DNA from: a virus
Lineage: Duplodnaviria; Caudoviricetes
Length of the DNA: 37,286 nt
Virus record (IMG/VR): IMGVR_UViG_3300011339_000690
Coordinates: 1-37,286 of that record
Direction: 5' to 3' (one strand)
How positions within the stretch are numbered: position 1 is the stretch's first letter; each line of letters begins with the position of its first letter. Under the pieces are notes generated by a model. The model was not told the DNA's origin. It saw only the letters and a list, made by a program, of their open reading frames with translations, and ran no database searches. Positions 4,679 to 24,972 of this stretch are shown here, in pieces. The position numbers and the translations under genes are program-made.

Positions 4679-5392
4679 ATGAGCTATACAGCCAAGCAAC
4701 TTATTGAAGGTGCATTGAGACTGATAGGCCAGTTGGCTGAAGGCGAAACGGTTGGCTATGACACGGCCAACGATTGCTTGCTTGCCATGAACCAGATGTT
4801 GTCCTCTTGGTCTACGGAACGCCTGTCGGTCTTCTCCACGCAGGATCAGGTTTTGACATGGCCTGCCAACACCATCAGCCGGACTCTCGGCCCTACTGGT
4901 GATTTGGTAGCGACTCGCCCGATCCTGGTAGACGACAGCACTTACTTCCGAGATCCCTCGACCAACGTGTCGTATGGGATCAAAATGATCAACCAATCCC
5001 AGTACAACGGGATTGCGGTCAAGACCGTCACCTCAACGTATCCACAGGTGATGTGGGTCAACATGACCTACCCTGACATTGAGGTCTACATCTATCCCAA
5101 GCCCACAAGGGCATTGGAGTTCCACTTTGTATCCGTGGAACCACTGTCTGAAGCGGCTGACCTGAATACGGTACTGACCTTTCCCCCAGGCTACCTCCGG
5201 GCATTCCGGTACTGTCTGGCCTGCGAGATTGCCCCAGAGTTTGGGGTAGAACCACCTCCGCAGGTGGTGAAGGTGGCCATTACCAGCAAGCGGGATCTGA
5301 AGCGGATCAACAACCCAGATGACGTGATGAGCCTGCCGTACTCGGTAGTAGCCAACCGTCAACGCTTCAACATCTATGCGGGCAACTATTGA
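4679..5392 (+). CDS. Head-tail connector (P22 gp4-like DNA stabilization protein)
   Basis: LIEGALRLIG...LLAMNQMLSSW and FPPGY...LACEIAPEFG motifs; position before gp10. Confidence 0.8.
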   Translation: MSYTAKQLIEGALRLIGQLAEGETVGYDTANDCLLAMNQMLSSWSTERLSVFSTQDQVLTWPANTISRTLGPTGDLVATRPILVDDSTYFRDPSTNVSYGIKMINQSQYNGIAVKTVTSTYPQVMWVNMTYPDIEVYIYPKPTRALEFHFVSVEPLSEAADLNTVLTFPPGYLRAFRYCLACEIAPEFGVEPPPQVVKVAITSKRDLKRINNPDDVMSLPYSVVANRQRFNIYAGNY

Positions 5393-8274
5393 TGAAGACG
5401 CCGATTCTTGGTGGGTATGCCGTAGCACGGTCGGTCAATGCTGCCGACAACCGTTTGATGAACCTCTACCCCGAGGCTACGCCAGAGGGTGGCAAGACAT
5501 CAGGATTCCTTACCCGTTGCCCTGGGTACAAGTACGTTTCTGACGTAGGGTCTGGCCCTATCCGTGGCCTGTGGACGTTTGGCGGTTTCCTGTACGTTGT
5601 TTCGGGCGTGGAACTGTACAAGGTTGATAATGCTTGGACGGCCACCCTGTTGGGGACGGTATCGGGTTCTGGCCCTGTCTCCATGTCCGACAACGGCGAC
5701 CAGCTGTTTGTGGCCTGTAACCCACGATCATACACCTACAGCGTGGCATCCAACCTGTTTGCCGAGATTACCGATCCTGATTTCCCTGGTGCGGTGACGG
5801 TAGGCTTCATCAACGGCTACTTCGTATTCAACGAACCCAACAGTCAAAAAGTCTGGATCACCTCCTACCAGGATGGTGCCAGTGTTGACCCGTTGGAGTT
5901 CAGCTACACCGATGCCAACCCTGACAACCTGTTGAGCCTAGTGGTCAACCGGAACGAAATCTGGATGTTTGGCACCACCTCCACTGAGGTCTGGTACTAC
6001 AGCGGCGACATAGATTTCCCTTTGGCCCGTATTCAGGGTGCCTTCAACGAGATTGGCTGTGCAGCCCCGTACTCCGTTGCCAAGCTGGACAACACGGTGT
6101 TTTGGTTGGGATCTGATCCCCGTGGTAACGCCATGGTCTACAAGGCTGCTGGCTACGGCGCTCAACGGGTATCCACCCACGGCATTGAGAAGGTGCTACA
6201 GGGCTATCGATTCGTTGGGGATGCCATTGGCTACTCTTACCAGCAGGAAGGCCATACGTTCTACGTCTTGTCTTTCCCGTCAGCCAATGCCACTTGGTGC
6301 TTTGATGCTGCCACCAACGAATGGCATGAGCGGGGATCTTGGAAGCAGGGTCACTACAATCGCCATCGGTCTAACTGTCAGGCCAACTTCAACAACACGA
6401 TTGTGTTGGGTGACTTCCAGTACGGGAAGCTCTACGAATTTGATCTTGAATACTACAAGGATGACGTGGGTACTCAGCGGTGGGTACGGTCGTGGAGAGC
6501 GTTGCCACCCAATGCCAACAACTTGAACCGGACGGCTCACCATAGCTTGCAGGTGGAGTTGGAGACTGGCACAAGGACAATAGAGTCAACAACCACCTCG
6601 CCTATCCCGCCTTCATCTGGCACCACACTGTCATATAACGCCGAATGGAGCGTCAATCATAGCAATTTTGAAATTGTCATTGATAACAATGGTCATGACA
6701 TCAGCAATCCTAATGGCCCATCTGCTTATTCGTATTTGTCGGCTAGGTCTGTTAAGACATGGGCAACAGGGCTTTATTACTTTGAGTTGACTTACACCGT
6801 TCAAGATCCCGCCGCTGTTTTGTACATTGGCGTTGGAGAGTGCGTATACGACTTTTATGAGCGAATTGGGTATGCCGCAACATCTTGCGGGCCAGGATAT
6901 GTTGCTGACGGGGCCGGAGTAATTCCAAATGAAATATATAACGCTGCACAATTTTTAAGCGACTTATCTGCATTTGGTGATGCAGCTCAAGGCGATGTGT
7001 TGATGGTGGCGGTAAGATGCGGTGAAAATAGCGCTTGGACGAATGGTTCATTTTTGAACCCGTCAACGCCTAGTTACATGGGTGGAAATGTTTGGTTTGG
7101 TCGCAATGGGGTTTGGTTTAATGGCGATCCTGCTACTTTTTCTGGCGGGGCCTCCATATTTACTTTGTACGGGCAGCCTTTATCACCGCGCACAGCATTT
7201 CTTGCTCCATACGTTACCTTGTTTGGATCATCAACCACTCAAAAAGTTACCGCTAACTTTGGCGACAGTGCGTTTGCTTACACACCGCCAACAGGATACA
7301 AACCGTGGAACCAAGACAACCCAAATCAATACAATCGTTTTAATTCGGATCTTCCAGCAATTGGACAATCAATACCAACAGTAACGTCTACATCGGTGTT
7401 TGTTGATAACGAGATTCCAGTTTATGATTTTGGAGTTTCTGAGTTTTCTGAAACTACTGGCAAGTTTTATCTTGAAGCAAGCGGTTTTGTAGGGACTGGA
7501 GATGTAGGTGATCCGTTAGCACAAGGGTTTATTAGCTTTGGTGAAGGCGGAATGGATCTTAACTACCAGCCAGCCAATTACAATCCTATTCCTTTGTCGA
7601 TATACCAATCAACAGAAGTCTGCGCATTTGATTTTGTGGCATTTGCTAATGAAAACATACCACCTTCAGGAATAACTGTTTCTGGAGTTAAGTACAACTC
7701 TGGCCTTCAAGCTTATTCGGCATCTACATATCCTATTGACCCCAACGTAAAAGCCGTTGGTCAAAATCCGAATGAAAAACTGATGATCGCTATAGACTTT
7801 GATGCAGGAAAGCTATGGGTAGGATCAAAAGGTGTATGGAGCGGCGATCCAGTAGCGGGAACTGGTCAAGTATGGGACTTTACGCCTAACAACGAGTTGT
7901 ATGTTTATGCGGGATTAAACACGCTAAACAGTGGTGTAGGGTCATTTTCTGTTAACGTTAATTTCAATCCTTCATCGTTTCAATATCCAATTCCCACTGG
8001 CTACACCGTATTCAACAGTTCAGGCGTCACCACTGCTACTTCTGAGCGCATCCCCAAGGTGCTGCTCCGTTGGTCAGACGATGGTGGCCACACATGGTCA
8101 AACTACTACGACCGTGAAATGGGAGCCTTGGGTGAGTACTGGACTCGGGTGATCTGGCGTCGATTGGGCATGGCCACCAAGCTCCGGGATCGGGTGTATG
8201 AACTGTCAGGCTCTGATGCAGTCAAGATTACCCTGACTGGCGCTGAACTGATCCTGTCGGGGACTAACTCATGA
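5392..8274 (+). CDS. Tail hub / packaged-DNA stabilization protein (P22 gp10-like) with a large tandem SPRY-like insertion
   Basis: gp10-like N-terminal ~390 aa (NLYPE, IWMFGTTSTEVW, YQQEGHTFYVL) and C-terminal LRWSDDGGHTWSN...WRRLG flank a ~490 aa insert. Confidence 0.85.
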   Translation: MKTPILGGYAVARSVNAADNRLMNLYPEATPEGGKTSGFLTRCPGYKYVSDVGSGPIRGLWTFGGFLYVVSGVELYKVDNAWTATLLGTVSGSGPVSMSDNGDQLFVACNPRSYTYSVASNLFAEITDPDFPGAVTVGFINGYFVFNEPNSQKVWITSYQDGASVDPLEFSYTDANPDNLLSLVVNRNEIWMFGTTSTEVWYYSGDIDFPLARIQGAFNEIGCAAPYSVAKLDNTVFWLGSDPRGNAMVYKAAGYGAQRVSTHGIEKVLQGYRFVGDAIGYSYQQEGHTFYVLSFPSANATWCFDAATNEWHERGSWKQGHYNRHRSNCQANFNNTIVLGDFQYGKLYEFDLEYYKDDVGTQRWVRSWRALPPNANNLNRTAHHSLQVELETGTRTIESTTTSPIPPSSGTTLSYNAEWSVNHSNFEIVIDNNGHDISNPNGPSAYSYLSARSVKTWATGLYYFELTYTVQDPAAVLYIGVGECVYDFYERIGYAATSCGPGYVADGAGVIPNEIYNAAQFLSDLSAFGDAAQGDVLMVAVRCGENSAWTNGSFLNPSTPSYMGGNVWFGRNGVWFNGDPATFSGGASIFTLYGQPLSPRTAFLAPYVTLFGSSTTQKVTANFGDSAFAYTPPTGYKPWNQDNPNQYNRFNSDLPAIGQSIPTVTSTSVFVDNEIPVYDFGVSEFSETTGKFYLEASGFVGTGDVGDPLAQGFISFGEGGMDLNYQPANYNPIPLSIYQSTEVCAFDFVAFANENIPPSGITVSGVKYNSGLQAYSASTYPIDPNVKAVGQNPNEKLMIAIDFDAGKLWVGSKGVWSGDPVAGTGQVWDFTPNNELYVYAGLNTLNSGVGSFSVNVNFNPSSFQYPIPTGYTVFNSSGVTTATSERIPKVLLRWSDDGGHTWSNYYDREMGALGEYWTRVIWRRLGMATKLRDRVYELSGSDAVKITLTGAELILSGTNS

Positions 8275-9164
8275 GCTTGACCCGCATTCCTGGTAATCAG
8301 GTGCCGGTGCTAGAGAACAACGGGTTGATGAGCCGGGAGTGGTATCGGTTCTTCTACAACCTGTTCCAAATCACCGGCGGTGGCTCATCGGACATCACCC
8401 CTGCTGAGTTGCAGGCTGAGGTGGATGCCCTTGATACGGCGGTGGCTGGCCTGACGGTTGACGTGAACACCCTTGATACCCAGGTAACCAATCTGGACGG
8501 TTCGGTGAATGCCCTGAGCAACCAAGTGGCGGCTGTAGAGGATGAGGCCAACTATTCGTACCTTGAGCCGCCAAATGACACCAGTGAGTTTCAGAAGGCC
8601 ATACAGGACGCCAAGTTGAGCCAAATGGAGTCGGCAATCAACGAATTGGCTACCGTTGTGCAGGGTGTGGGGCTTAACCCGCCTGTGTTCGTCAACAGCG
8701 AGCTTGGGATTGGGTCGTTCTATGACACCACTACGTTTGTGCCTGCCGCCATCAACACGGCGTATGCCATTACTTTCGACACATCGGTGATTGAGAACAG
8801 CATATATAGAGGGTCTACGACCAGCAGGATCTATGTGACCAATGCCGGGGTCTACAACTTCCAGTTCTCGGCTCAGTTGGACAATACCAGTGGTGGCGAC
8901 CATGCCATCTATATCTGGTTCCGGGTCAACGGGACTGACATTGCCAACTCCGCCAGCCAAGTAAGGCTAAGAGGCAATAACGGGGAGTTATTGGCAGCAT
9001 GGAACATCTTTCTGAGCATGGCCGCAGGCGACTATTTTGAACTAATGTATTCTGTAGATGATACTGCTGTACGGATATTGGCTCAGGCCGCAGTCAGCCC
9101 CGTGCCGGCCATACCCTCGGTCATATTGACCGTCAACCAAGTGTATAGCCCTTACGGGCATTGA
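8271..9164 (+). CDS. Tail needle (gp26-like) with coiled coil and C1q/TNF-like knob
   Basis: MSREWYRFF N-terminus, heptad repeats, C-terminal AGVYNFQFSAQL...AGDYFELMY beta-sandwich; follows gp10. Confidence 0.65.
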   Translation: MSLTRIPGNQVPVLENNGLMSREWYRFFYNLFQITGGGSSDITPAELQAEVDALDTAVAGLTVDVNTLDTQVTNLDGSVNALSNQVAAVEDEANYSYLEPPNDTSEFQKAIQDAKLSQMESAINELATVVQGVGLNPPVFVNSELGIGSFYDTTTFVPAAINTAYAITFDTSVIENSIYRGSTTSRIYVTNAGVYNFQFSAQLDNTSGGDHAIYIWFRVNGTDIANSASQVRLRGNNGELLAAWNIFLSMAAGDYFELMYSVDDTAVRILAQAAVSPVPAIPSVILTVNQVYSPYGH

Positions 9165-9171
9165 GGACTTT

Positions 9172-9507
9172 ATGACCATAGTGGTATCGGCCATCATACC
9201 GGCCAAGACAGCAGAGAACACCCAAACGACGCAGTACACGTCTACGGGGGTATCTACCATCATTGACAAGTTCACGGCTACGAACTACTCGGCAAGCCCT
9301 GCTACCCTTAGCGTCAACTTGGTGACCTCTGCTGGCTCTGCTGGAAACAGCAACCTGATCACCAAGACCAAGACCCTGTTGGCCGGTGAGGTGTTTACCT
9401 TCCCTGAGTTGGTGGGTCAGGTGCTGAACGCAGGTGATTTCATTTCAACGATTGCCGGAACTGCATCGGCCGTCAACATCCGGGCCTCTGGCCGGGTAAT
9501 CTCATGA
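9172..9507 (+). CDS. Hypothetical small beta-sandwich tail-module protein
   Basis: GAGGA RBS; ATGA-coupled to the next gene. Confidence 0.7.
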   Translation: MTIVVSAIIPAKTAENTQTTQYTSTGVSTIIDKFTATNYSASPATLSVNLVTSAGSAGNSNLITKTKTLLAGEVFTFPELVGQVLNAGDFISTIAGTASAVNIRASGRVIS

Positions 9508-10343
9508 ATGATCTGGTAGTGGCTGCAACCAAGGCTATTCAGGCTTTCAACTCTCCACAAGAGGTTGAACAGGCGCTTATGCACGTTGAACAGGCCATAG
9601 CCCCCTTGGTTCACCACTTTGGCCCAGGTATCGCCATCAGGGAAATGAGCCTGCCTGCCGGTGTATTGATGTTGGGCCACAAACAGAAGTATGAGCATCT
9701 TTGCATCCTGTTGGATGGTGAAATGCTGGTGAAGCTGGAAGAGAACGATGAGCCTGTCCACATAGAGGCCCCCGCCCTGTTCACGGCCAAGCCTGGGCAG
9801 AAGATCATGTTCACCATTACAGACTGCGTGTTCCAGAACGTGTATGCCTCAGACCTGAAAGATGGGGCATCCGTTGAAGACCATTTCATCGAGAAGAACG
9901 ACAACTTCTACCAGAACGAAGCCATGAAGTTTGCCTATGAACAGATGGATAAGGCGGCTGACCGTGAAGACTACTTCAAGTTCTTGGTTGAGTTGGGCAT
10001 GGATCATTTTGACTTCCTCAAGACCTTCATGGCCGAGCCTGTCAACATGATCGAAAGCGGCATCACCCAGTTGAGTCCGTCACCTATTGAGGGGGTTGGC
10101 CTGTATGTGACCTGCCCTGTCATGGCTGGCGAGGTCATCATGCCTGCCACGGTTAACGGGGTTCGCACCCAAGCGGGCCGGTATGTGAACCATAGCCGTC
10201 ACCCTAACTGTAAGATGGTGCTAAAGGCTGATGGCGAATATGACTTAGTGGCACTGGAAACCCTGTACGGCTGTGTTGGTGGCAATGCAGGTCAAGAACT
10301 CACAGTTGATTACAGGCACTTGTTTGCCTTCATGAAGAGGTAA
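9504..10343 (+). CDS. Cupin-like + SET-domain protein (putative lysine methyltransferase)
   Basis: SET motifs SPIEGVGLY, RYVNHSRHPN and GQELTVDY; N-terminal cupin-like GHKQKYEHLCILLDG. Confidence 0.8.
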   Translation: MNDLVVAATKAIQAFNSPQEVEQALMHVEQAIAPLVHHFGPGIAIREMSLPAGVLMLGHKQKYEHLCILLDGEMLVKLEENDEPVHIEAPALFTAKPGQKIMFTITDCVFQNVYASDLKDGASVEDHFIEKNDNFYQNEAMKFAYEQMDKAADREDYFKFLVELGMDHFDFLKTFMAEPVNMIESGITQLSPSPIEGVGLYVTCPVMAGEVIMPATVNGVRTQAGRYVNHSRHPNCKMVLKADGEYDLVALETLYGCVGGNAGQELTVDYRHLFAFMKR

Positions 10344-10348: not shown

Positions 10349-11173
10349 ATGTCAGCAGTAATGGCTGCGATGGTGATAGGTGGGGCGCAACTAGGTGCCG
10401 GTGTCCTTGGTGCTATGGGGTCACGCAGTGCCGCTAAGCGTCAAGAACGTGCTGCCAGACGTGCCTTGGCGTTGCAGCGACAAATGTTTGCCACCCAGCA
10501 AGCAAACCTTGAACCCTTCCGGGCTAGTGGTGTTCGCGCCCAAAACGAACTGATGAAACTGCTTGGCCTTGGTGGCGATACCCAGGCTGAGGGCTATGGG
10601 GCACTGGCTCGGGATTTTGGGATGCAAGACTTCCAGCAAGACCCTGGGTACGCCTTCCGAATGTCTGAGGGCTTGAAAGCTTTGGAACGCTCCGCTGCCG
10701 GTAGGGGTGGTGCTGCCTCTGGTGCCGCTATGAAGGGGATCACCCAATATGGACAGAATCTGGCCTCTCAAGAGTATCAAAACGCTTTTAACCGATATAT
10801 GGCAAATCGCCAATCTCGCCTTTCGCCTTTGCAGAACCTTATGGGCATGGGCGCCGGTGCTGCTTCAGGTCTGTCTAACGCTGCTGGCCAATTTGGACAG
10901 GTTGGTGGTCAGAGTTATGGGGATATAGGCAATGCCCAAGCAGCAGGCATCATGGGGCCAATCAATGCACTGGCTGGTGGTATTGGCGGGGCAGTGAACA
11001 CTTATCAGACTGGCCAGTTGATAAACTCGCTGAGGCAGGGTGGCGGTGGCTTTTACGGCGGTGGAAGCATCTACTCCAACCCAGGGGAATTACAGTCGGG
11101 TGTCACTTCATTGAGCGGCCCCGGTGGTTCATATTTGGGCGACGTCAATCTTCTCCCCAATAGCCTTTCGTAA
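10349..11173 (+). CDS. DNA ejection/transfer protein (P22 gp7-like)
   Basis: Hydrophobic Gly/Ala N-terminus; FQQDPGYAFRMSEG and YGQNLASQEYQNAFNR motifs; synteny. Confidence 0.8.
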   Translation: MSAVMAAMVIGGAQLGAGVLGAMGSRSAAKRQERAARRALALQRQMFATQQANLEPFRASGVRAQNELMKLLGLGGDTQAEGYGALARDFGMQDFQQDPGYAFRMSEGLKALERSAAGRGGAASGAAMKGITQYGQNLASQEYQNAFNRYMANRQSRLSPLQNLMGMGAGAASGLSNAAGQFGQVGGQSYGDIGNAQAAGIMGPINALAGGIGGAVNTYQTGQLINSLRQGGGGFYGGGSIYSNPGELQSGVTSLSGPGGSYLGDVNLLPNSLS

Positions 11174-11184: not shown

Positions 11185-12867
11185 ATGCCTATTAATCCAG
11201 CCATAGCCATGAGTTTTCAAGCTCCCAAGTTTGAAGACCCCATGAACCGTTTGGTGCAAGCGGAGCAGATCAAAGCGTACCAACAGAACGCGCTCGCCAA
11301 GCAAATGGAAATTGAAATTGCTCGACGCGAAATGGATCAAAAAAGTGGTTTGCGAAATTACTTGGCCGCTATGAAGTCAGGTGAGTCACTCAGCCCTGCC
11401 GACTTGGCTCAGTTTGGCGAAACTGGTTTGAAGTACGGCAAGTTGATACAGGAAATGGAAGCGCAGCAATCGACCAAGCGAAAGGCAGATACTGACGCTG
11501 CTATGAAGATCCATGAGTATTACTTGACCGGGGTACCTGAACTCAAAACCGTAGATGACGCATTCAACTGGGCTAAGACCTATCGAAGCGACCCTCGTCT
11601 GAAACCGCTTACGTCGGGAATGTCAGACGAAGAGGCTTTTGCACGACTGCCGAAAACACCCGAGGCACTCGAGCGGTGGAAGTCGAATCTGTTGGTGCCG
11701 TTCAAGGACCAGCAGCAGCGCAGCACTGATCAGTTGAAGAATCTCGACGCAGAGATCAACAGCCTCACTGGCAAACTGAATGCCTATACCCCTGAAGGCG
11801 TACTGACAACAGATCCGGCAGTTGCTCAACAACTTGCCGTTCTGCAAGCACGACGCGCTCAGTTGGTGGGCGGCATGGGCGCACCTGCTGCCGGTGGTCA
11901 ACCGATGCCTCCGGATCTGACTGGAGCTATAGAAGGCGTGCAGCCTTCTGTGGTGCCGCCGCCTGTTGCTCCAGATAGCGTCCCAGGGCTTCGCACGCTT
12001 CCGCAGCTTCCGACCGATCAAGCTGTTCCAACTACGCTCCCGTCGCGGCCCGGTGATCAAGGTAAAATGGTACCTCTTGCCGGAGCACCGGAAGATGTGA
12101 CTACACAGGTTGCAAAAGCCCGAGCGGATATTGCTGAAAAACAGCAAGACATCAAGTATCAGGCTGAGTTGAGAAAGAACAAGCCCAAGGTAATAAACCA
12201 AACGAAGTCTGCATTCGCGTCGCTTGATGAACTTGCGTCAAACGTCGATAAACTACTTGGAGATGTCATTGGTGAAGATCCTACTCAAGCTTCATCGTAT
12301 GCTGGACATCCTGGATTGAGTGACGTCAGCGGAAGATTTTTGGGAACTGAAGCCGGTAAAGAATATCTTGGTAGATTCAAATCTGACGAAGCCGCAGATG
12401 CGTTTGAAACTCAAAAAACGCTTAATTCCCAGAAATTCATGGGGTCGATTGAGCAGTTGAAAGCATTGAGTCCGACAGGATCTACTGGTTTGGGTGCGTT
12501 GGCTGTCAGAGAAGGTGAAGAACTTAAAAATGCTTTTGCTGACATAGGATCTGCGCGAAATACCGAAACGTACAAACAGAAGCTTATTGAGTTTAAAGCC
12601 AAGCTTGATCGCGTCAAAAGACGCCTTGCTGAAGGGGTTAACACTGAGTATGGCGAAGATGTCATACCAATGTCCGATTTCGGTGGCGGCGGTGCTACCG
12701 GTGAAGACATGACGCTGATAGGTACTAATCGTAAAGTGCCTACTCAAGCTCCAACTTCTGCGGGATCAAAAGTACCATTGGGTCCAAAAATTGGAACTAT
12801 TGAAGATGGGTATAGATTCAAAGGCGGCGATCCTTCCAATAGCGCAAATTGGCAAAAGGTAGAATAA
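11185..12867 (+). CDS. DNA ejection protein (gp20 position)
   Basis: Helical protein, second of the ejection trio; GLGALAVREGEEL motif; C-terminal GYRFKGGDP...NW. Confidence 0.65.
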   Translation: MPINPAIAMSFQAPKFEDPMNRLVQAEQIKAYQQNALAKQMEIEIARREMDQKSGLRNYLAAMKSGESLSPADLAQFGETGLKYGKLIQEMEAQQSTKRKADTDAAMKIHEYYLTGVPELKTVDDAFNWAKTYRSDPRLKPLTSGMSDEEAFARLPKTPEALERWKSNLLVPFKDQQQRSTDQLKNLDAEINSLTGKLNAYTPEGVLTTDPAVAQQLAVLQARRAQLVGGMGAPAAGGQPMPPDLTGAIEGVQPSVVPPPVAPDSVPGLRTLPQLPTDQAVPTTLPSRPGDQGKMVPLAGAPEDVTTQVAKARADIAEKQQDIKYQAELRKNKPKVINQTKSAFASLDELASNVDKLLGDVIGEDPTQASSYAGHPGLSDVSGRFLGTEAGKEYLGRFKSDEAADAFETQKTLNSQKFMGSIEQLKALSPTGSTGLGALAVREGEELKNAFADIGSARNTETYKQKLIEFKAKLDRVKRRLAEGVNTEYGEDVIPMSDFGGGGATGEDMTLIGTNRKVPTQAPTSAGSKVPLGPKIGTIEDGYRFKGGDPSNSANWQKVE

Positions 12868-12869
12868 TT

Positions 12870-14474
12870 ATGGGCGCTGCACCGTGGGAAAAATATCAAA
12901 CTGCTCAACCGACTCCAGCGGGGTCTGCGGCTCCTTGGGAAAAATACACCAAAGCGCCTGCAAAACCTCAGGCCAGTACGCTCGAGATCATCAGGCAGGC
13001 TCCAGGGAGAGCCGTGGCCGGTGTCGCGGAAGGTATCGCTCAGACTCCTGAGAACATCCTCAACTTGGCGAAGATGGCGTATGGCACAGGGGTTACCGCG
13101 GCAGGGTTTCCCGGAATGGCTCCTTCCGTCGAGTCGCCTCCGCAGCGGATCATCCCGTTGCTTGAGATGACTGGAATCCTGCCACCACTTGGTGAAATGA
13201 CGCCGGGGCAGAAGGTACTGAACACCGGTCTGCAGGCCGGCTTGGCAGGCTTGGTATCGCCCGCTGCAGGGGCTAGAGAAGTGATGTCCACTGGTCTGAA
13301 GGGGGCACTGGGCGGGGCTGCAGGCGAGGCGGTCACGCAACAGACCGGCAACGAACTACTGGGGTTGGCCACTACATTGGCTACTCCAGGGTTGGCCACC
13401 AAGGCGGCTCAGTCTAGGCAAGCTTCCCTGCAGGCTCAAACGCCCAAGCTGAACGCATTGGCCGAGGCTCGAGCCGCCGGGTACAAGGTTGTCCCGAGTG
13501 ATATCGAACCTACGATGGGCCGCCGCTTGGTTGAAGGCATTAGTTCTCGAGAAGCCCTTGAGTCATCATTGGCAGCAAAGAACCAGAAGGTCACTGACCG
13601 GTTGGCACGGCAAGCATTGGGTCTTACCAAAAGTGATCCTCTTGATGAGAACACGCTCAAGAAACTTCGGACCGAAGCATATGAGACTGGGTACAAACCT
13701 ATTGAACAGGCAGGACGGATCAACGCTGATGTTGATTATTTGCTTGAACTGAATGACGTCGGACGAAAATACGGTAGCGTGACGCCGTCATTCCCAAAAG
13801 CAGCCAAAGATGAAGTTGAAAAAATTATTAAAGCTCACAGAGTGAACGGATTTGAAGGACGTGACGCTCTCAAGCGCATTAGTGACCTGCGGGCTGACGC
13901 TACCGCGGCATTTAAGCGAGATGAGAATGATCTTGGGTCAGCCATGCGGGGCGTTGCTGACGCACTCGAAAACCAGTTGGAACGGCACTTAAACGTTAAT
14001 AACGCTGGTGCAGTAGATCGATTCCGGCAGGCCCGCATTCAGATGGCCAAGACCCATGCGGTCGAAGCGGCGATGAAACGCGGAGAGGGGTCTGTGGATG
14101 CCACCAAACTGGCAAATTTATTCCAGCGGAAAGCACCATTAACGGACGAACTGGCGACAATTGCCCAGAGTGCAAATGCGTTTGGTAACGCGTTTCGACA
14201 ACCCGGCAAGGCCAAAGCGGCTGCAGATTTGGTTACGCCGGTTTCTTCAATATTAGGTGGGTTCGCGGGGAATGTCCCCGGTGCAATTGCTGGTGCTTTA
14301 GCGCCCGCCTTAGTCAGAGGCGGCGCTCGAGCGTACTTGGGTACCCCTTTGGGTCAGCGATCTGCTACGGTTGGCGTCAAGAACGTATTGTCAGAATTAA
14401 GCGGCCAAAACATTTCTGACCCACTTGTCCTTAATGCACTGCTGGCGAGTATCGCCGCGAACAGGAGCGAATAA
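12870..14474 (+). CDS. DNA ejection protein (gp16 position)
   Basis: Ala/Gly-rich with amphipathic segments; ATG at 12870; duplicated AAPWEKY at the N-terminus. Confidence 0.65.
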   Translation: MGAAPWEKYQTAQPTPAGSAAPWEKYTKAPAKPQASTLEIIRQAPGRAVAGVAEGIAQTPENILNLAKMAYGTGVTAAGFPGMAPSVESPPQRIIPLLEMTGILPPLGEMTPGQKVLNTGLQAGLAGLVSPAAGAREVMSTGLKGALGGAAGEAVTQQTGNELLGLATTLATPGLATKAAQSRQASLQAQTPKLNALAEARAAGYKVVPSDIEPTMGRRLVEGISSREALESSLAAKNQKVTDRLARQALGLTKSDPLDENTLKKLRTEAYETGYKPIEQAGRINADVDYLLELNDVGRKYGSVTPSFPKAAKDEVEKIIKAHRVNGFEGRDALKRISDLRADATAAFKRDENDLGSAMRGVADALENQLERHLNVNNAGAVDRFRQARIQMAKTHAVEAAMKRGEGSVDATKLANLFQRKAPLTDELATIAQSANAFGNAFRQPGKAKAAADLVTPVSSILGGFAGNVPGAIAGALAPALVRGGARAYLGTPLGQRSATVGVKNVLSELSGQNISDPLVLNALLASIAANRSE

Positions 14475-17354: not shown

Positions 17355-17542
17355 ATCTTCCTTCCCATCGTAATGTTCTTCTGCGCCCTGACCTTGCTGT
17401 TGTCCCATGACCAGATCTCCCCATCCTGCCCAAAACAGACCCAAAGCAAATTGTGTTCCGGGCCGTAGTCGATCACCAAATGGGCCAATGCAGGCCCTTT
17501 AGGCGTATCCAAGGGCAACGGCGGGTTGAGTTGCTGGATCAC
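17351..17542 (-). CDS. Hypothetical phage protein
   Basis: Translationally coupled on both sides. Confidence 0.7.
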   Translation of the reverse strand: MIQQLNPPLPLDTPKGPALAHLVIDYGPEHNLLWVCFGQDGEIWSWDNSKVRAQKNITMGRKI

Positions 17543-17961
17543 TTCCCTGTACTCCCGAAACCACCAGCACCACGGTCTGTGTCGGACAGTTCGCCCTCTT
17601 CAAACGAGACCTGCTGGATGGGGATGATCATGCCCTGGGCTATCCTGTCACCGGGGAAAACATCTAAGGCAAAGAACCCATCGTTTTTAATCAGCGCCTT
17701 CACCTCTCCCCGATAGTCTGAGTCCACTACCCCTACGCTGTTGGCGAGTGATATGCGCTTGACCCCGTGTCCTGAACGGCTGTACAGCATCAAGGCGTAA
17801 CCCTCCGGCACCTCAACGGCAATCCCTGTACTAACGGCCTGCATGTCTTCCGCCCTGACCGTGACCCTTTCGGCGCTGTAAAGATCAAAGCAGGCAGCAC
17901 CTTTGGTGGCATACGTTGGCATCATGGCTTCTCTGGCAAGCCGTTTGAACTTCACGATCAT
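17539..17961 (-). CDS. dut: Trimeric dUTPase
   Basis: Motifs AACFDL, SRSG, GVVDSDYRGE, DRIAQ, RGAGGFGSTG. Confidence 0.97.
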   Translation of the reverse strand: MIVKFKRLAREAMMPTYATKGAACFDLYSAERVTVRAEDMQAVSTGIAVEVPEGYALMLYSRSGHGVKRISLANSVGVVDSDYRGEVKALIKNDGFFALDVFPGDRIAQGMIIPIQQVSFEEGELSDTDRGAGGFGSTGK

Positions 17962-18170
17962 GCCTGCGACCTCTCAGCAAATGACACCAGTTCGTCAGCG
18001 CAGTCATCAATCAACTCCTCTGCTGTCTCAGCAAACTCGCATTTGCCGATTTCCATCATGCTGTCGATGTTGCTGACATAACGCCAGTACGGGTGATTGT
18101 CTGCACTACTGGCTATTTTCCGGAACGTAGACCTCAGCATGGTCAACGCTTGTTTCTGATCCTGTGTCAT
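17958..18170 (-). CDS. Hypothetical protein
   Basis: ATGA coupling; AAGGAG RBS. Confidence 0.65.
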   Translation of the reverse strand: MTQDQKQALTMLRSTFRKIASSADNHPYWRYVSNIDSMMEIGKCEFAETAEELIDDCADELVSFAERSQA

Positions 18171-18340
18171 ACCAACTCCTTCAAATCGAACAACGTCTTC
18201 AGTTCTTTCCGCAACGGACTCACGTCCAGTTCCGGATGCTTGTCAGCCAGCAACTCGAGATACCGTAGAGCAGCCCGAGCCTGGGTGTGAGTCTGGCAGG
18301 AGTTGACCACCTTCCACGCCTTCTGGATCAACTCGTTCAT
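18167..18340 (-). CDS. Hypothetical protein (57 aa)
   Basis: Start MNELIQKAW at 18340 overlaps the upstream stop. Confidence 0.65.
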   Translation of the reverse strand: MNELIQKAWKVVNSCQTHTQARAALRYLELLADKHPELDVSPLRKELKTLFDLKELV

Positions 18341-18711
18341 AACACTTTCACCAACTTCTGCAGATACCAAATGGCCTTCTCGGCATTCTCTCGAGCCGAT
18401 CCCTTGTGATCCAGACGCCAGAGATACTTGATGGCGGCGGCTTTGCAGTAGCCTTTGAACTCTTCTGCGCTGAGCGCTGCTTGCAGTGCGTCGATGCATT
18501 CAATCCCTCCTTGGGTGTAGTGAGGCGGATGGTTGACCATATCGTAGTGGTCACCCGTGGGGCCGTTCTGGCCGATCACATCGATGCGGGCCTCGTCGAA
18601 TCTCATCGTCATCTGTCTCTCCTCTGGATGGAAACACGCGCCCGAGCACTCGCCCATGGGATAGCTGCACTCTGGCACCGCGCAAAGTTTCTTGCTCTGT
18701 ACGTTATACAT
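18337..18711 (-). CDS. DUF3310 (SaV / T7 gp1.7 nucleotide-kinase-like) protein
   Basis: DMVNHPPHYTQGGIECIDA...IKYLWR...KAIWYL. Confidence 0.85.
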   Translation of the reverse strand: MYNVQSKKLCAVPECSYPMGECSGACFHPEERQMTMRFDEARIDVIGQNGPTGDHYDMVNHPPHYTQGGIECIDALQAALSAEEFKGYCKAAAIKYLWRLDHKGSARENAEKAIWYLQKLVKVL

Positions 18712-18715
18712 TGTA

Positions 18716-20149
18716 TCACGCTCCTTTTTGTTTTGCCAATCGGTATTCTTTTACGGCGTTGCGAAGCGCGGCCTGCGTGTTTGCCTTCTGATCGAGCGCC
18801 TGCGCCTGCGCCTGATCGAGCGTGTCCTGCATCAGGATGCGGTGGCAGATGACCGGCACACCCTGACCCTGACGGCGTACGCGAGCGTTAAACTGTTCGT
18901 AAAGATCCAGTGACCAGTTAAGACCAAACCACACCAGTATGTGGCCATTTTTCTGCAGCCCGTCGATGCCGTGGCCCATGCTGGCCGGGTGGCCGATCAT
19001 CAGCGGGCAAGTGCCGTCCTTCCACCGCTGCATGGCATTGATCAGGGCGCTCTCCGACTTGCACTCCGTCAGGTTGATCGGGGACAAGTGCTTGAAACGC
19101 TCCATGATCCTCTGGGCGTCGCTACGGTAGGCGTAGGAGCACAGCACGGGTGACCCCTGCGCCTCGTCCAGGATGTCCTCGAGGGCGTCCAGTTTCAGGT
19201 CATGGATCGGTTCCCACAAGGGCATGCCCGCAATCGGGTACATGGCACCGTTGCTGAACTGGAGGCACTTGTTGGTCAGCGCTGCCTGGTTGAACACCTC
19301 CACGTCTGTCCCACTGTCGAGGGTCAGGAAGAACTCCTCCTCGAGTTGTTCGTACTTGGCTCTCAACTCGTCGGGCAGTTCAATCTCGAGGTTGTTGACG
19401 ATCAAGTCAGGCAACGGGTTGTAGTCCTCTGCAGACATCTCGAGGGTGATGTCACCGATCAACTGCTTGATCCCAGTCTCGGTGTCACGGTAGGGAATGT
19501 CCTTGCGGTTGTCGGCGTCTTTCTTGTACCACTGGGTCATGAAGGCGGTCTTGAACTTGCCCAAGCGCTCCCCGCCATCGACTACCAAGTACTGCCCGTG
19601 CAGATCCTTGTACCCGTTGCTGGCGGGTGTGCCGGTCAGGCCGGTGCGCCAGATGAAGTGGTCCAGTACGTTGTCGTCCCGCCTGCCGGAGAACCACGCA
19701 TTGACCCGGTTGGTGGTACTGTTTTTCATCTTACTGACTTCGTCCCACACGACCCCGTTGAACGGGATGGGCTTGCCCTTGCTGATGAAATAGGTGTGCA
19801 GCGTTTCCGCCAGCCACTTCATGTTCTCGTAGTTGATCAGGTAGACGTGGGCTGGACGCATCAACGCCCGGATTCGCTGATCTCGAGTGCCGGTCACCAT
19901 GCTGAACTGCAGGTGCTTGGTATGCACCCACTTCTCAGCTTCCTGCCGCCACACCAGCCGGATGACCCGGATCGGGGCTACGATGACCACGCCCCGCAGG
20001 TACCCGGTGTTGATCAGGTGCGCGATGCTGGTGAGCGTGATGACCGTCTTGCCGAGGCCCATGTCCAACCAGAGCATGCTGGCCGGGTGGCTGCACTGGA
20101 ACCCAACAGCTTTCTTTTGGTAATCGTGGAGCAGTTCAGGCGATAGCAC
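18716..20149 (-). CDS. SNF2-family (SF2) helicase
   Basis: LDMGLGKT, WDEVS, LTGTP, GHGIDGLQ, QFNARVRRQGQ. Confidence 0.93.
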   Translation of the reverse strand: MLSPELLHDYQKKAVGFQCSHPASMLWLDMGLGKTVITLTSIAHLINTGYLRGVVIVAPIRVIRLVWRQEAEKWVHTKHLQFSMVTGTRDQRIRALMRPAHVYLINYENMKWLAETLHTYFISKGKPIPFNGVVWDEVSKMKNSTTNRVNAWFSGRRDDNVLDHFIWRTGLTGTPASNGYKDLHGQYLVVDGGERLGKFKTAFMTQWYKKDADNRKDIPYRDTETGIKQLIGDITLEMSAEDYNPLPDLIVNNLEIELPDELRAKYEQLEEEFFLTLDSGTDVEVFNQAALTNKCLQFSNGAMYPIAGMPLWEPIHDLKLDALEDILDEAQGSPVLCSYAYRSDAQRIMERFKHLSPINLTECKSESALINAMQRWKDGTCPLMIGHPASMGHGIDGLQKNGHILVWFGLNWSLDLYEQFNARVRRQGQGVPVICHRILMQDTLDQAQAQALDQKANTQAALRNAVKEYRLAKQKGA

Positions 20150-20432
20150 GGGACTTACCCCACATGATGTCGAGCACCAGTTTGCCCTTGGCCACGTCGT
20201 CGATTACGAACACGTTCAAGCCGTAAGATTCGATCCTTTCCTGTTCCCGAGTCTGCGGTGCCGTAGACGTTCCGCCGGGTCGCTTGAACTCAATAAAGAA
20301 CACCAGACCTTTAGGGCAAATAAACATGCGATCAGGCACACCCACTCGCCCAGGACTCGTAAACTTGTACACCAACATTCCAAGTTCTTTTGCATATTCG
20401 CACACTCGTTTTTCAATCTGTTTTTCCAGCAT
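20136..20432 (-). CDS. VRR-NUC domain nuclease
   Basis: EKQIE...GVPDR...FIEFKRPGG (PD-(D/E)xK). Confidence 0.9.
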   Translation of the reverse strand: MLEKQIEKRVCEYAKELGMLVYKFTSPGRVGVPDRMFICPKGLVFFIEFKRPGGTSTAPQTREQERIESYGLNVFVIDDVAKGKLVLDIMWGKSRAIA

Positions 20433-22258
20433 TACTGTAACCCTAACGTTAGTTTTTCCACTTCTTTGATGTAATACTCGTAGTCGATGGGCAGCGTGGC
20501 GTCATCGAGGTCATTGCAGACCTGGACGTTCCACCCTGATTCGACTGCGATCTTGCGCCACTCGGTCTTACCCTTCAGCGGTGGCATCCACTTGGTCAGC
20601 GGCTTGCCACCCTTGGCAATGTAATACCGGGTGATGTTCTGCACTTGCTGCTCGCCCCACTGCAGGTAGCTTGACCGCGGCACCTTGGTGCGAAGCATGA
20701 AGTCCATTCGGTCTGGCCAGTTCTCGACGGTCTTGCGGATCGGCGCACCCTCGACCAGTACCTTCTCGGCCACCTTGGGGATCACCAAGCCGCCAGCGTT
20801 CTGGTGCCAACTGGTGACGTACTCGTACGCACCCTTGCGCTTGACGCCACCGTCCTCCCGCACCGCGATGTAATTGTTCACGTCGCGGATCATCATGGCC
20901 TTGTAGGTGACATCCTCGAGGGTCAATCCGGTCTTCATTTCCCAGTGTGTGCGCGCATTCAACACATCGGCCACCAGTGTGCGCGGCACATTGACAGTCA
21001 GACCATCGGTGTTGATCTGGATGATCTGCAGACCGCGTATGGCCATCAACTGCTCAGCCAGCATGCACAGGAGCAACTGACCATTGAGCGTAATCTTCAT
21101 GGTGAACAGCGGGTCATAAAACACACTGAAACGATTATTAGAGTCGCCGTATACGCCGTTAAGAGCCAACTTAAGCATCGCGTTTTCAGCGGTTTTCTTT
21201 CCGTACTGTTTTCGTTGTTCATAGAGCGACTTGTAGATAGTGCAGAATGTCTCGCCCAGGTGCTGCGGGTAAAACCCATTGGCGATGGCGAGGTTGGGGT
21301 AATACGAACTGACATCGAGGTCGATGATAACCATGTCGTCGGTAGACTCGATGATGCGCGACTCGACGGAGCCGTGGATGCCTCCGGTACCGAACACAAA
21401 CTCAAACCCGTCGATGCTGGCGGTCAGGTCACTGAACACGCCCTTGGTTTCGGTAATCTCCTGCTGCTTGAGCCACTCGAGTACCCGGCGAAACTCAGGC
21501 TGATCGAACTGGACCCATGGCAGGATGGCGTCGTTCAGACGCAGCACAGGACGCAGTGTCTGCCGAGGAGTGCGGCCAGCAGGGCCAAAGTCATAACAGG
21601 CTACACCAGCTTCCTCGAGCTTCATGACAAAGTAGTCTTTGCCGATCTTGGTGTCGTTGTGGTTCATGAAGTCGCGATTGTACTTGCGCGTCAGTTCTTC
21701 ACGGAACCGGATCATCTCGAGCGTGTGCTCGTAGAACTTCTTGGTCTGCGCCACATCATGCCGGTTGTACTGGCGCAGGGTCAGGATCTGGTCCTGATCG
21801 AGGATCGTGCCAGGCTTAAACGGCAGGTCTTGAATGGTCTTGGAGCGCATGTTGAACTCGAGCGCCTTCAGACTGGTAGACCGTGCGTTGTTGTCGAAGT
21901 GGTGGATCTTGAACAGGTCGATCTGGTTGATGTACCGATCCCCTGCGTACACCTGATGCGCCCACTTGTCCTCGTCCTGCGCGTCGAACATGGCCTGCAC
22001 CTTCTGGTAGATGATGTCAGGCTGCACGCGGTTCATCTTGATCGCCATGTGCAGGATGGGATAGTCGAACGCCAGGTTGTTGAACCCGATCAGACGTCCA
22101 TTGTGCTGGCGGATGGTGTCGAGGAACTGCAGGAGAGCAGGCCCATCGTTGCGCCAAGGACTGACTTCATACAGCAGGGTGATAGGGTATTCGACGTGCT
22201 CGAACGCTGCGAGGAACACGTTGGGGTAAGTCTCGATGTCGTAAACGTAGTCATACAT
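20432..22258 (-). CDS. Family-B-type DNA polymerase with 3'-5' exonuclease
   Basis: Exo I YDIETY, Exo II GFNNLAFD, Exo III YNRHDV; pol motifs DLDVSSYYPN, KLALNGVYG, QINTDG; ATG at 22258. Confidence 0.9.
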   Translation of the reverse strand: MYDYVYDIETYPNVFLAAFEHVEYPITLLYEVSPWRNDGPALLQFLDTIRQHNGRLIGFNNLAFDYPILHMAIKMNRVQPDIIYQKVQAMFDAQDEDKWAHQVYAGDRYINQIDLFKIHHFDNNARSTSLKALEFNMRSKTIQDLPFKPGTILDQDQILTLRQYNRHDVAQTKKFYEHTLEMIRFREELTRKYNRDFMNHNDTKIGKDYFVMKLEEAGVACYDFGPAGRTPRQTLRPVLRLNDAILPWVQFDQPEFRRVLEWLKQQEITETKGVFSDLTASIDGFEFVFGTGGIHGSVESRIIESTDDMVIIDLDVSSYYPNLAIANGFYPQHLGETFCTIYKSLYEQRKQYGKKTAENAMLKLALNGVYGDSNNRFSVFYDPLFTMKITLNGQLLLCMLAEQLMAIRGLQIIQINTDGLTVNVPRTLVADVLNARTHWEMKTGLTLEDVTYKAMMIRDVNNYIAVREDGGVKRKGAYEYVTSWHQNAGGLVIPKVAEKVLVEGAPIRKTVENWPDRMDFMLRTKVPRSSYLQWGEQQVQNITRYYIAKGGKPLTKWMPPLKGKTEWRKIAVESGWNVQVCNDLDDATLPIDYEYYIKEVEKLTLGLQ

Positions 22259-22280
22259 AACAGTTACCCATAACAAAAGT

Positions 22281-22347
22281 GCCCGGTTTTTTCAGTGGGC
22301 GGGCGGCCACTACTCTCGACGGTTCAGATGGCGTCCGCGCCCGTCGA
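22281..22347 (-). ncRNA. Structured RNA leader: bulged hairpin plus H-type pseudoknot upstream of the DNA polymerase gene
   Basis: Pairings read directly: UCGACGG/CCGUCGA; S1 AGUGG/CCACU; S2 GCCCG/CGGGC; A-rich L3. Confidence 0.55.
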
Positions 22348-23001
22348 TTATTGCGTCAAGAAGGGAGGCAGACCCGGCATCGCGGCGAACGCAGGCGCTG
22401 CAGGCGCAGGAGCCGCACCGGCCACAGCACCAAACAGGCCAGAGGCATCCGTAGCCGCCTCGCCAAACGCCTTGTCGTCACCGGCGAACTGGATGGCGAC
22501 GAGGTCACAGCGAACCCCACGGCCATACTTGTTCTCCTGCAGCCATGGTTTGATCGCGGCATTGACGCGGCAACCACCGTACATCTTACGGGTCAGTTGC
22601 TGATAGGCCATCGTGTTGTTGGGGTCGATGGGCGTACCGTCAGCTTGGATGATCTGCGGGGGCGTGTCACGGCCGCAGGTGATGTAGACGTTGCCCGCGT
22701 AACCATCGTACGGCTGGAACGTTTTTTTGTTCACCTTCTCCTCGCCGCGGCCAAAACAGCGCAGCTTACGCTCCGACTGAATCATCTGCATGGACGCTTG
22801 AGAGTGTTCCTTCCACTTCTCGAGTGCCATGGCACCGTAGACCTGCATGAACTTCAGGAACGCAGGGTGGTCCTGCGGCATGAGCAGTTCGCAGTTATAG
22901 CTGATGCGCTCTTTGCCAGTGGTTTCGATGACCTGGCGCTGCGGCTCAACGAGATGCGGGAAGGACAAACGAACATTGGATACAAGGATGACTTCTGACA
23001 T
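22348..23001 (-). CDS. Single-stranded DNA-binding protein (DUF2815 / T7 gp2.5-like)
   Basis: NVRLSFPHL, MYGGCRVNA, LVAIQFAGDDKAFG; lies between DUF2800 and the polymerase. Confidence 0.88.
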   Translation of the reverse strand: MSEVILVSNVRLSFPHLVEPQRQVIETTGKERISYNCELLMPQDHPAFLKFMQVYGAMALEKWKEHSQASMQMIQSERKLRCFGRGEEKVNKKTFQPYDGYAGNVYITCGRDTPPQIIQADGTPIDPNNTMAYQQLTRKMYGGCRVNAAIKPWLQENKYGRGVRCDLVAIQFAGDDKAFGEAATDASGLFGAVAGAAPAPAAPAFAAMPGLPPFLTQ

Positions 23002-23013
23002 TGGATTTACCTC

Positions 23014-24297
23014 TTACTTTAACCACGCCGGGAGATCCGGCTCATTGTTTACCGCACCGAACATCGATGAGGCATCTGTGACCACAGCAGGACGTGAGTC
23101 CGACTCTGGTACAACGGTCAGCTTACCGGCCATCTTGGTGATGTACTCGTTCAGCCTTTCCAGTTGTTTTTTGCTGAGTTGATTCTTGGAGCCGTCACGT
23201 TTTTCCCAGCTCAACTTCTCAGCCTTGGCAGGACTGACCAGCTTAATTTCATAGATTGCCCCTTTCGGGATTCCCATGGCAACCAGCTTCTCAGCCATTT
23301 CGTCTTCATTGTGCGCCCATACACGGCTACCGCGACCATGGACCAGCTTCAACCCTTCCACCTTCTGACCGCCCTGCAGGCGGCGCATGGCCTCCTCTTC
23401 GACAGCCTCGATCAACTGGCGCAACAGAGGTGCTGCCTCGAGGATCTGGCGCAGTTGAGCACTGTCCATGGTGGCGGGGTTTTTATCGGCACTCTGCTGG
23501 ACGAGATCCAGCGGTGTCGGCGTTTCAACAGGAGCAAACATAACATTTACCTCTTTCATTACAAATTGCGCGTAGGCCGTGCATGCACCCTTGGCCCTGC
23601 AATATTTACACTGCTTCTCACCTGGGGTAAGCGGTGCGTCCGGTGCGCTCGCGTTCGCCAGTTCTGCTGCCAACGATCCAACAACATCGTCGAGGAAATA
23701 CTTTACCGGGAAGGTCACCGTGGTGATCGGTTCCAGGTTTTTCCAGACTAGCTTGGGCTGGATCACTGTCAAGTGAACGGTGTGATACGCCGTGAACAAA
23801 TTGTGCGGCACCTTGAACCCAGCCAACACCCCCACGGCGTACTGCTCCAATTGCTCTCGAGCATCAGTGGGCTGGATACCATCCTTGTAGTCGATGATCT
23901 CGATCTCCTTGGCGTACGGATCATAGATCAGCACGTCAACCGTACCACTCGCGCCCTTACGACCAATCAGGAACTCAGGGTCCACGCGGATCTCAGACTC
24001 GACTTTCATGTTGGGGGTGATGCGCTGACGCAGATAGTTGACCGCCACAGCAACCCGGTTGGCCCGTTCAGCATCGACGACGAACTTGCCCTCATGGTCC
24101 TCGAGGGTATCGCCAATGAAGTTCAACGGGCTGATCAGATGCCCCTTGACGCACAACTCGAGTAACGTGTGGGTGTGCGTACCATCGGCCGCAGCGGGGC
24201 CGGACGGCCCCTCCGGGTATTTGGCTTCCTCACGGATCGAACCGGCGCAGTGCTTGAACCGTACACGACGTGATGGGCTGAACTCATCATGCGCCAT
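23014..24297 (-). CDS. DUF2800 Cas4/RecB-like exonuclease
   Basis: HDEFSPS...C, GTHTH, GTVD, IIDYKDG, QLEQYA, CKYCRAKGAC. Confidence 0.9.
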   Translation of the reverse strand: MAHDEFSPSRRVRFKHCAGSIREEAKYPEGPSGPAAADGTHTHTLLELCVKGHLISPLNFIGDTLEDHEGKFVVDAERANRVAVAVNYLRQRITPNMKVESEIRVDPEFLIGRKGASGTVDVLIYDPYAKEIEIIDYKDGIQPTDAREQLEQYAVGVLAGFKVPHNLFTAYHTVHLTVIQPKLVWKNLEPITTVTFPVKYFLDDVVGSLAAELANASAPDAPLTPGEKQCKYCRAKGACTAYAQFVMKEVNVMFAPVETPTPLDLVQQSADKNPATMDSAQLRQILEAAPLLRQLIEAVEEEAMRRLQGGQKVEGLKLVHGRGSRVWAHNEDEMAEKLVAMGIPKGAIYEIKLVSPAKAEKLSWEKRDGSKNQLSKKQLERLNEYITKMAGKLTVVPESDSRPAVVTDASSMFGAVNNEPDLPAWLK

Positions 24298-24920: not shown

Positions 24921-24940
24921 CGGTTTTCTCCGGTTGCTTT

Positions 24941-24972
24941 TTGCATAGTACCACAACTATTATACATTGCAA
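24941..24972. promoter_or_regulatory. Overlapping divergent sigma70-like promoters
   Basis: Rightward TTGCAT-N16-TACATT; leftward TTGCAA-N16-TACTAT with extended TG. Confidence 0.5.

Follow-up and report, generated by a model that had tools for sequence, protein, structure and literature searches.

A cupin–SET protein in the IVP-A slot of a P22-type phage, and the match between slot enzyme type and the N-terminus of the adjoining ejection protein

Section 9 of Hardies et al. (PMC4819975) assigns the IVP-A slot acetyltransferase-like proteins in T7, P22 and epsilon15, gives a single alternative family for it, and reports that T7 IVP-A is required for morphogenesis and does not stay in the virion. 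In its passages on the slot, that paper names neither a substrate nor a match to the N-terminus of the partner protein (PMC4819975). The slot families, T7 gp13 (PF11090, phrog_308), P22 gp14 (PF11039, DUF2824, phrog_651) and, as the alternative, phiRIO-1 gp39, are encoded downstream of the tail hub or nozzle genes and directly before the IVP-B/gp7 ejection gene. The same position in the 37,286-base virus record IMGVR_UViG_3300011339_000690 (estimated completeness 98%; analysed over its whole length and called the window below) is occupied by a gene whose product joins a cupin to a miniature SET domain, folds unrelated to those of the IVP-A families. Here we analyse this cupin–SET gene, its relatives and the ejection proteins encoded beside them, and report that the type of protein in the slot is matched by residues 2–4 of its partner, which may be its substrate.

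The cupin–SET protein and its family

The protein scored 23.6 bits against the Pfam SET profile (PF00856; cut-off 22.4) and its relatives reach 38.9 bits; an NCBIfam search with the query gave no match. A profile of the family matched MLL1 (E value 1.4e-7), and a SET-only profile matched MLL1 (1.9e-9) and the chlorovirus PBCV-1 protein vSET (A612L, PDB 1n3j; 2.2e-4). We compared an AlphaFold model of the query (predicted local distance difference test score, pLDDT, 92.6; 39 sequences) with known structures, and residues 182–275 aligned with MLL1 (KMT2A) at Z 9.6 and a root-mean-square deviation (rmsd) of 2.6 over 85 residues, and with EZH2 at Z 10.3 and rmsd 3.2 over 97. The phage protein has its SET fold in common with MLL1, EZH2 and vSET, as well as motifs I, III and IV. 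The phage domain differs from these three in its length of about 95 residues, a GCxGG insertion, the absence of a post-SET cysteine (no cysteine follows Y270), its fusion to a cupin and its location in an operon for phage morphogenesis, where there is no histone target. An initial annotation of the window had read intact SET signatures without post-SET cysteine behind a cupin-like domain, and the motifs, the profile score and the fold all agree with it. Many relatives end in Cys-Gln, which we considered as a post-SET ligand and rejected because it is the next gene's overlapping ATG-TCA read in another frame; it is also missing in the query.

The family is large: among 1,152 candidates, 244 scored as relatives, and a profile search gave 527 clusters (50% identity) at E ≤ 1e-30 and 5,740 at 1e-3. 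The 149 representatives are 27–41% identical to the query. All four of G199, N229, H230 and Y270 were intact in 143 of 148 representatives covering these positions (singly in 148/149, 145/149, 144/149 and 145/148), so that the core is conserved as if active. The spacing from GxG to NH is 29 residues in 133 of 145 relatives, compared with 63 in MLL1. On this spacing and on secondary structure, rather than on model coordinates, the SET-I substrate lobe, with its peptide groove and lysine channel, is judged to be mostly missing.

The N-terminal half matched tm1459 in Foldseek at an E value of about 1e-5 (1.2e-5) and gave Z 11.7 and rmsd 1.8 over 85 aligned residues by VIA. The double-stranded β-helix is common to this half, small RmlC-like cupins (tm1459, PpnP) and the thiol dioxygenase ADO (Z 10–12), at 8–20% identity, and fold alone shows no function. 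In cupin-only relatives three histidines (positions 61, 65 and 114) are invariant (13/13); two of them are lost in the query, which has Q61, H65 and Y114, with H59 nearby. Across the fused family, H59 is kept in 109/144, H65 in 112/144 and K100 in 144/147, position 61 is Gln in 75 and His in 69 of 144, and position 114, invariably His in the cupin-only proteins, is Tyr, Phe or Trp in 128/148. Because its triad reads Q61/H65/Y114, catalysis by the query cupin is doubtful, and the proposal that it hydroxylates or demethylates was not borne out; H59 might in part substitute as a metal ligand. The cupin half belongs to the same family as stand-alone phage cupins labelled 'short tail fiber' in PHROGs. 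We rejected this label (phrog_12032/24280) since the matching half folds as a small cupin. Stand-alone slot cupins are called 'short tail fiber protein' or 'tail fiber adhesin' (PHROG 12032/24280; RefSeq, L085-L087, L441), which looks like a propagated mislabel.

We conclude from sequence and model that the gene in the IVP-A slot encodes a real, conserved and apparently active miniature SET domain joined to a cupin; we regard the two folds and the conserved cofactor residues as established. In databases the family is represented by phrog_34170 (unknown function), by UniProt entries from uncultured phages named 'SET domain containing protein', and by two cultured phages with the fusion, Rhodoferax phage P26218 (gp30) and Pseudoalteromonas phage PH1 (gp49); cultured hosts of the family are non-pathogenic. 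Its members are labelled only as SET or hypothetical, with one GenBank record named after vSET. The word 'methyltransferase' is absent from the main text of the P26218 genome paper, and the literature searched (with few subscription papers and no supplements) contained no description of a phage cupin–SET protein or of N-terminal capping of ejection proteins.

Other arrangements of these domains were also seen. At one locus (L178:4923-6533) cupin–SET carries at its C-terminus a glycosyltransferase-like domain whose Pfam match (E 0.00095) lies below cut-off. In P0123, L009:5132-6004 and nine more loci a 290-residue gene with a DxD-like motif precedes cupin–SET or is fused to it; a glycosyltransferase assignment for this gene was made by eye only, and the gene gave no match in Pfam, PHROG or the PDB. 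SET genes without a cupin lie behind primase/helicase-like genes in bacterial genomes (L196:4944-5552 and L197:5327-6109), with an ejection-like gene a short distance downstream at L196 and none downstream at L197. Searches designed for longer fusions (none found) and shorter forms (two fragments) were uninformative, as fusions surfaced by other routes.

Slot occupants and the partner N-terminus

The cupin–SET gene had been described as translationally coupled to its neighbours; its start overlaps the upstream stop (ATGA), and the gp7-like gene begins 5 nucleotides past its own stop. We collected 106 full-length cupin–SET loci from the window, IMG/VR and genome contigs, some of them near-identical and with partial matches and three annotated records excluded. 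A called open reading frame starts near the stop in 105 of them, and 91 of these frames are gp7 by hidden Markov model. Conversely, 80 loci anchored on gp7 were classified by their upstream gene, via profile match or by eye: 27 cupin-only, 14 GNAT-b, 11 cupin–SET, 10 GNAT-a, 6 with a DDxxD motif, 5 sulfotransferase-like/GNAT fusions, 4 short GNAT and 3 with no slot gene. GNAT-a passes the Pfam GNAT cut-offs, GNAT-b matches acetyltransferase and P22 gp14 PHROGs weakly (phrog_651, E 0.002), the short type resembles GNAT-b by profile (93.6%), and the sulfotransferase match of the fusion lies below the cut-off. Cupin-only genes stand between nozzle and IVP-B in the T7-like phages RSB3 and SnaP-R1, where T7 has gp13; P22-like phages have them before gp7, the position of gene 14 in P22. 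In Pfam and PHROG scans the query gave no match to the acetyltransferase-like families of GNAT-type IVP-A (PF11090, PF11039), which the controls P22 gp14 and T7 gp13 do match. As the initial annotation had supposed, the slot is, on these assignments, interchangeable among unrelated enzyme folds, and cupin–SET probably works like an IVP-A slot factor without membership of the GNAT-type families.

The DDxxD occupant is an all-helical protein of 150 residues in which the motif is invariant (15/15). By VIA, the first 31 rows for its model were all isoprenoid-synthase folds; the best (Z 10.2, rmsd 3.6, 143 residues) falls under the bar of about 13 that applies to helical bundles. It had no PDB sequence match and no Foldseek match at E ≤ 0.001. 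We consider it a candidate protein prenyltransferase, prenyl transfer being a prediction.

Each type of occupant goes with its own partner N-terminus. When loci were anchored on the enzyme, the partner of cupin–SET had Ser2 in 102 of 105 (the exceptions being two miscalled starts and one Ala) and Gly, Ala or Ser at residue 3 in all; among distinct N-termini, Ser2 was found in 81 of 83, giving the pattern M-S-[G/A/S]. Partners of cupin-only proteins begin M-[ST]-[FMW] (79/79 called, from 80 loci), those of the DDxxD protein have Pro or Ala at residue 2 and Pro4 in 77/78 (M-[PA]-x-P), and those of GNAT-b have Pro2 in 80/80; these three sets are the nearest relatives of one query each and are less diverse than the cupin–SET set. 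In the gp7-anchored set, MS[GAS] was present in 11 of 12 cupin–SET rows (window included) and in none of the 69 others. Ser2 of cupin–SET partners is written with both codon families (TCN 71, AGY 31) and is kept across twelve gene spacings, in proteins with a median identity of 31%. Where an ATGA overlap dictates that codon 2 begin with A, the residue is Ser in 22/22 cupin–SET partners, and Thr in 7/40 cupin-only partners. Within one cupin clade MSGW partners stand beside proteins with SET (6/6) and MAGW partners beside proteins without it (4/4, two identical). SET-fused cupins fall at three separate places on a weakly resolved cupin tree (62 rows, 105 columns), with MS[GAS] partners throughout the two smaller ones. 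We conclude that the match between enzyme type and residues 2–4 of the partner is, for the sequences compared, a new result, and we take both the match and the slot assignment as established.

Residues 2–4 carried 1.12, 1.95 and 1.43 bits of information on enzyme class, compared with 0.33–0.72 bits at residues 10–25; the last eight residues of the upstream gene, which are equally linked, carried 0.09–0.61 bits (103 loci). On a FastTree phylogeny of gp7 from residue 36 onward (81 rows), slot type changes 29 times. Independent pairs agreed in 7.8 of 8 cases for cupin–SET (p ~0.008), 7 of 7 for GNAT-a (0.016) and 5.9 of 8 for cupin (0.03); GNAT-b and DDxxD agreed in 4 of 4 each, too few to reach significance. 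For a prediction test, rules were fixed beforehand and two collections were then scanned with gp7 bodies minus the N-terminus. This gave 160 loci, from which 28 were dropped (11 duplicates, 9 with no callable start, 8 cut upstream) and 26 had already been seen, leaving 106 fresh loci from phages that are still relatives of the earlier ones. Six specific rules called the upstream gene correctly in 66 of 73 fresh loci; a broad MG rule, kept outside this count, applied to six (two fitted a class model, four did not), and 27 were covered by no rule. Ten of the new loci had cupin–SET, with Ser2 in nine and Ala in one.

Further occupants and their partners were also recorded. The DDxxD loci (L093, L142, L278-L357) have partners that begin M-[PA]-[DNES]-P. 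Sulfotransferase-like slot proteins (L110, L130, L135, L157, L168; L444, L458, L467, L476, L508), whose 355-residue forms have a C-terminal half that is GNAT-like by eye, are followed by partners beginning M-G-L-A or M-V-[AI]-A. By eye, the slot gene of L526 and L599 resembles a 2-oxoglutarate oxygenase of the Asp/Asn-hydroxylase type (partners M-P-W), and that of L500 and L522 is GNAT-like (partners M-C-I; T7 gp14 begins M-C-W).

Cupin–SET also occurs in two long-tailed phages (L070:3122-7926 and L082:5854-10358, with tape measure, distal tail and tail protein genes), directly before a tail protein of 1,200–1,300 residues. This tail protein is unrelated to gp7 yet begins M-S-S and has a hydrophobic segment. 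The position, where many long-tailed phages have an NlpC/P60 gene, may be a second tip-processing slot.

Proposed action on the partner, and rival explanations

It is likely, in our view, that cupin–SET recognises the N-terminus of its partner. As the full reading we favour, with a probability of about 0.5, an enzyme dependent on S-adenosylmethionine (SAM) that acts on the ejection-protein N-terminus during assembly, with α-N-methylation of Ser as the predicted reaction and the cupin as docking module. Methionine is removed before small residues, and host deformylase and methionine aminopeptidase would expose Ser-(Gly/Ala/Ser)-(Ile/Val) on the co-translated partner. The cupin, its metal site altered, would dock the hydrophobic N-terminal peptide, and the SET domain, without most of the lysine-channel lobe, would put one or more methyl groups on the terminal amine. 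Judged on spacing, a SET domain that lacks the channel-forming lobe seems a better fit for a terminal amine than for a long side chain, which favours α-N-methylation of Ser. Capping would then shield the N-terminus, or make it suitable for head loading and for insertion into the outer membrane afterwards; that the cap protects the tip or tunes loading or insertion is speculation. PrmA acting on L11, PilD on type IV pilins and NTMT1 are protein α-N-methyltransferases, with the chemistry predicted here; to our knowledge none of them has a SET fold or serves in phage assembly. A passage of PMC8954989 describes homologous ejection proteins as anchored in the host outer membrane, and one of PMC3991674 mentions α-N-methylation for the Rubisco small subunit and plastid L2/L16.

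In sister phages the same job would fall to different caps, among them acyl caps from GNAT, prenyl caps from DDxxD and oxidative caps from cupin occupants. We tentatively extend this to a modular N-terminal capping system for the first injected protein of tailed phages, in which at least five unrelated folds (SET methyltransferase, His-triad cupin, GNAT, prenyl-synthase fold and sulfotransferase-like) use one slot, each with a three-residue tip code; such a system would explain T7 gp13 and P22 gp14.

Several observations weigh against α-N-methylation and against capping in general. Lys and His are the established acceptors of SET methyltransferases, and we know of no firmly established SET enzyme that acts on an α-amine. 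Ser2 is not exclusive to SET, being present in 68 of 79 cupin-only partners; cupin–SET partners at L005, L126 and L595 have Ala2; an MSG partner stands behind a non-SET gene at L453; 3 of the 80 gp7-anchored loci have no slot gene; and the SET-only homologue of L197 is not followed by an ejection gene. The first 10–15 or so codons of gp7 evidently recombine together with the upstream gene, so that the match is in part due to co-transfer. The upstream gene makes a weak control, since its end is a conserved motif in which few changes could occur. Start and class calls were automatic and contain some errors, and the sampled phages are related. An acetylated α-amine normally blocks N-terminal sequencing. 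Passages of PMC8402733 report that the N-terminus of mature, OpdA-cleaved P22 gp7 taken from virions could be sequenced, which, P22 having a GNAT-type slot gene, argues against α-acetylation in P22, and that gp7 minus its first 20 residues keeps about 60% of burst. P22 gp7 matures by OpdA cleavage, whereas the relatives compared here start at the hydrophobic segment and appear not to need it.

Lysine methylation, the activity named in the initial annotation and predicted there only, would probably need another acceptor than gp7. No lysine column exceeds 45% among 78 distinct partner gp7s, and residues 2–30 are free of Lys in 36 of 89 partners, so a gp7 lysine is an unlikely target; the conserved feature is the N-terminal Ser. 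The enzyme could modify a lysine of another virion, ejection or host protein, with the cupin alone, for example as a loading adaptor, explaining the N-terminal match. Every solved SET relative retrieved is a Lys methyltransferase, the cupin occurs alone in 27 of 80 gp7-anchored loci compared with 11 with SET, as if it were the core occupant, and SET-only homologues exist, one of them away from any ejection gene. Against this, Ser2 tracks the presence of SET inside one cupin clade and most of the SET-I lobe is absent; the lysine comparison covered gp7. We judge this explanation unlikely, and the evidence favours a single target, the N-terminus of the adjoining ejection protein, over virion or host proteins in general. 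That the slot proteins are instead peptide-binding chaperones or loaders on borrowed enzyme folds, which hold the hydrophobic N-terminus until procapsid entry without covalent change, would fit the need for T7 IVP-A in morphogenesis and its absence from the virion (PMC4819975, section 9), the readable N-terminus of mature P22 gp7 (PMC8402733) and the retention of a cupin that has lost metal ligands, and would spare five unrelated chemistries from having to serve one purpose. It sits poorly with cofactor and catalytic-position residues that are kept across deep divergence in the SET core (143/148), the DDxxD protein (15/15) and the cupin-only triad (13/13), and we consider it distinctly unlikely.

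A multi-step tailoring pathway would have the cupin still bind metal, through H59/Q61/H65 or, for half of the family, with H61, and oxidise either the N-terminal Ser or its neighbour before SET and sometimes a glycosyltransferase act. It draws on the frequencies of H59, Gln or His61, H65 and K100, on the L178 fusion and on the 290-residue gene of P0123 and ten loci. ADO is an N-terminal-Cys dioxygenase, and the human protein is one of numerous cupin matches that tie (Z 10.2, rmsd 3.5, 104 residues). The aromatic residue that replaces the invariant His at position 114, and the by-eye status of the glycosyltransferase reading of the 290-residue gene, make this pathway improbable. Hitch-hiking alone, with blocks that include the first gp7 codons being swapped and the enzyme unrelated in role, would suit slot and gp7 genes that overlap or abut, and near-identical gp7 bodies that bear different enzymes together with different first 10–15 residues. 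Ser2 is nevertheless held over both codon families, twelve spacings and partners of 31% median identity, it also occurs before unrelated tail proteins, and the signal drops after residues 4–5; as the whole explanation we give hitch-hiking hardly any weight.

If the preferred reading, α-N-methylation of the partner's Ser, is true, cupin–SET would be a minimal SET enzyme whose acceptor is of a new kind, and the long-known T7 gp13/P22 gp14 slot would have its substrate named and a mass shift specified for every enzyme type. Ejection proteins would then be capped post-translationally, perhaps with prenyl or acyl groups, ahead of their entry into the host envelope, a point relevant to the loading and insertion of DNA-ejection channels.

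Features and gene context of the window

Table 1. Coordinates of the cupin–SET gene, its parts and adjoining genes in the window.
Feature	Position	Strand	Basis
Cupin–miniature SET gene, 279 residues, ATG start, IVP-A (P22 gp14/T7 gp13) slot	9504..10343	+	phrog_34170, E 2.7e-56
Cupin (double-stranded β-helix), residues ~29-135, altered metal site H59/Q61/H65/Y114	9588..9908	+	Fold and phrog_12032, E 3.6e-19
Helical linker, residues 136-181 (model helices 133-149, 151-164, 168-176)	9909..10046	+	AlphaFold model
Miniature SET domain, residues 182-275, GCxGG insertion before ELT	10047..10328	+	Profile and model
SET motif I, GxG, SAM binding, IEGVGLY, residues 195-201	10086..10106	+	Translation
SET motif III, RYVNHSRHPN, residues 226-235	10179..10208	+	Translation
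SET motif IV, ELTVDY, residues 265-270, catalytic-position Tyr270	10296..10313	+	Translation
Conserved gene, 111 residues, function unassigned	9172..9507	+	Stop overlaps cupin–SET start (ATGA)
gp7-like/IVP-B ejection protein, predicted partner, begins M-S-A-V	10349..11173	+	phrog_598, E 7.2e-39
Partner N-terminal codons (Met-Ser-small-aliphatic) matching enzyme type, predicted substrate	10349..10369	+	N-terminus comparisons
Two more large genes at P22 gp20 and gp16 positions	11185..14474	+	Position only

Pfam and PHROG scans identified a P22-type portal, coat, adaptor and tail hub among the window proteins, together with the gp7-like gene. Cupin–SET had been placed between the needle region and the gp7-like gene; the gp7 side stands, and on the other side the direct neighbour is the 111-residue gene, which has no family match in the Pfam and PHROG scans. 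This gene lies directly upstream of the slot in many relatives irrespective of enzyme type. The gene at 8271-9164 showed no detectable similarity to P22 gp26 (BLASTP E 0.12) and no Pfam or PHROG match at E ≤ 0.001, so 'needle region' is a positional label only. The first of the two large genes downstream of the gp7-like gene has a sole match, phrog_25769 (unknown).

No integrase was found among 34 window proteins scanned, which suggests a lytic P22-type podophage. On the opposite strand, positions 17539-29043 hold a replication block with dUTPase, DUF3310, SNF2 helicase, DNA polymerase, single-stranded-DNA-binding protein, DUF2800 nuclease and DUF7227 genes, accompanied by a primase-helicase on the + strand. 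The tail hub (gp10/Hc3, 5389-8274) has 961 residues, about twice the P22 length, and an insertion of about 490 residues separates two stretches that match phrog_578. By eye the insertion resembles repeats of a SPRY-type β domain; among relatives it ranges from 466 to 952 residues.

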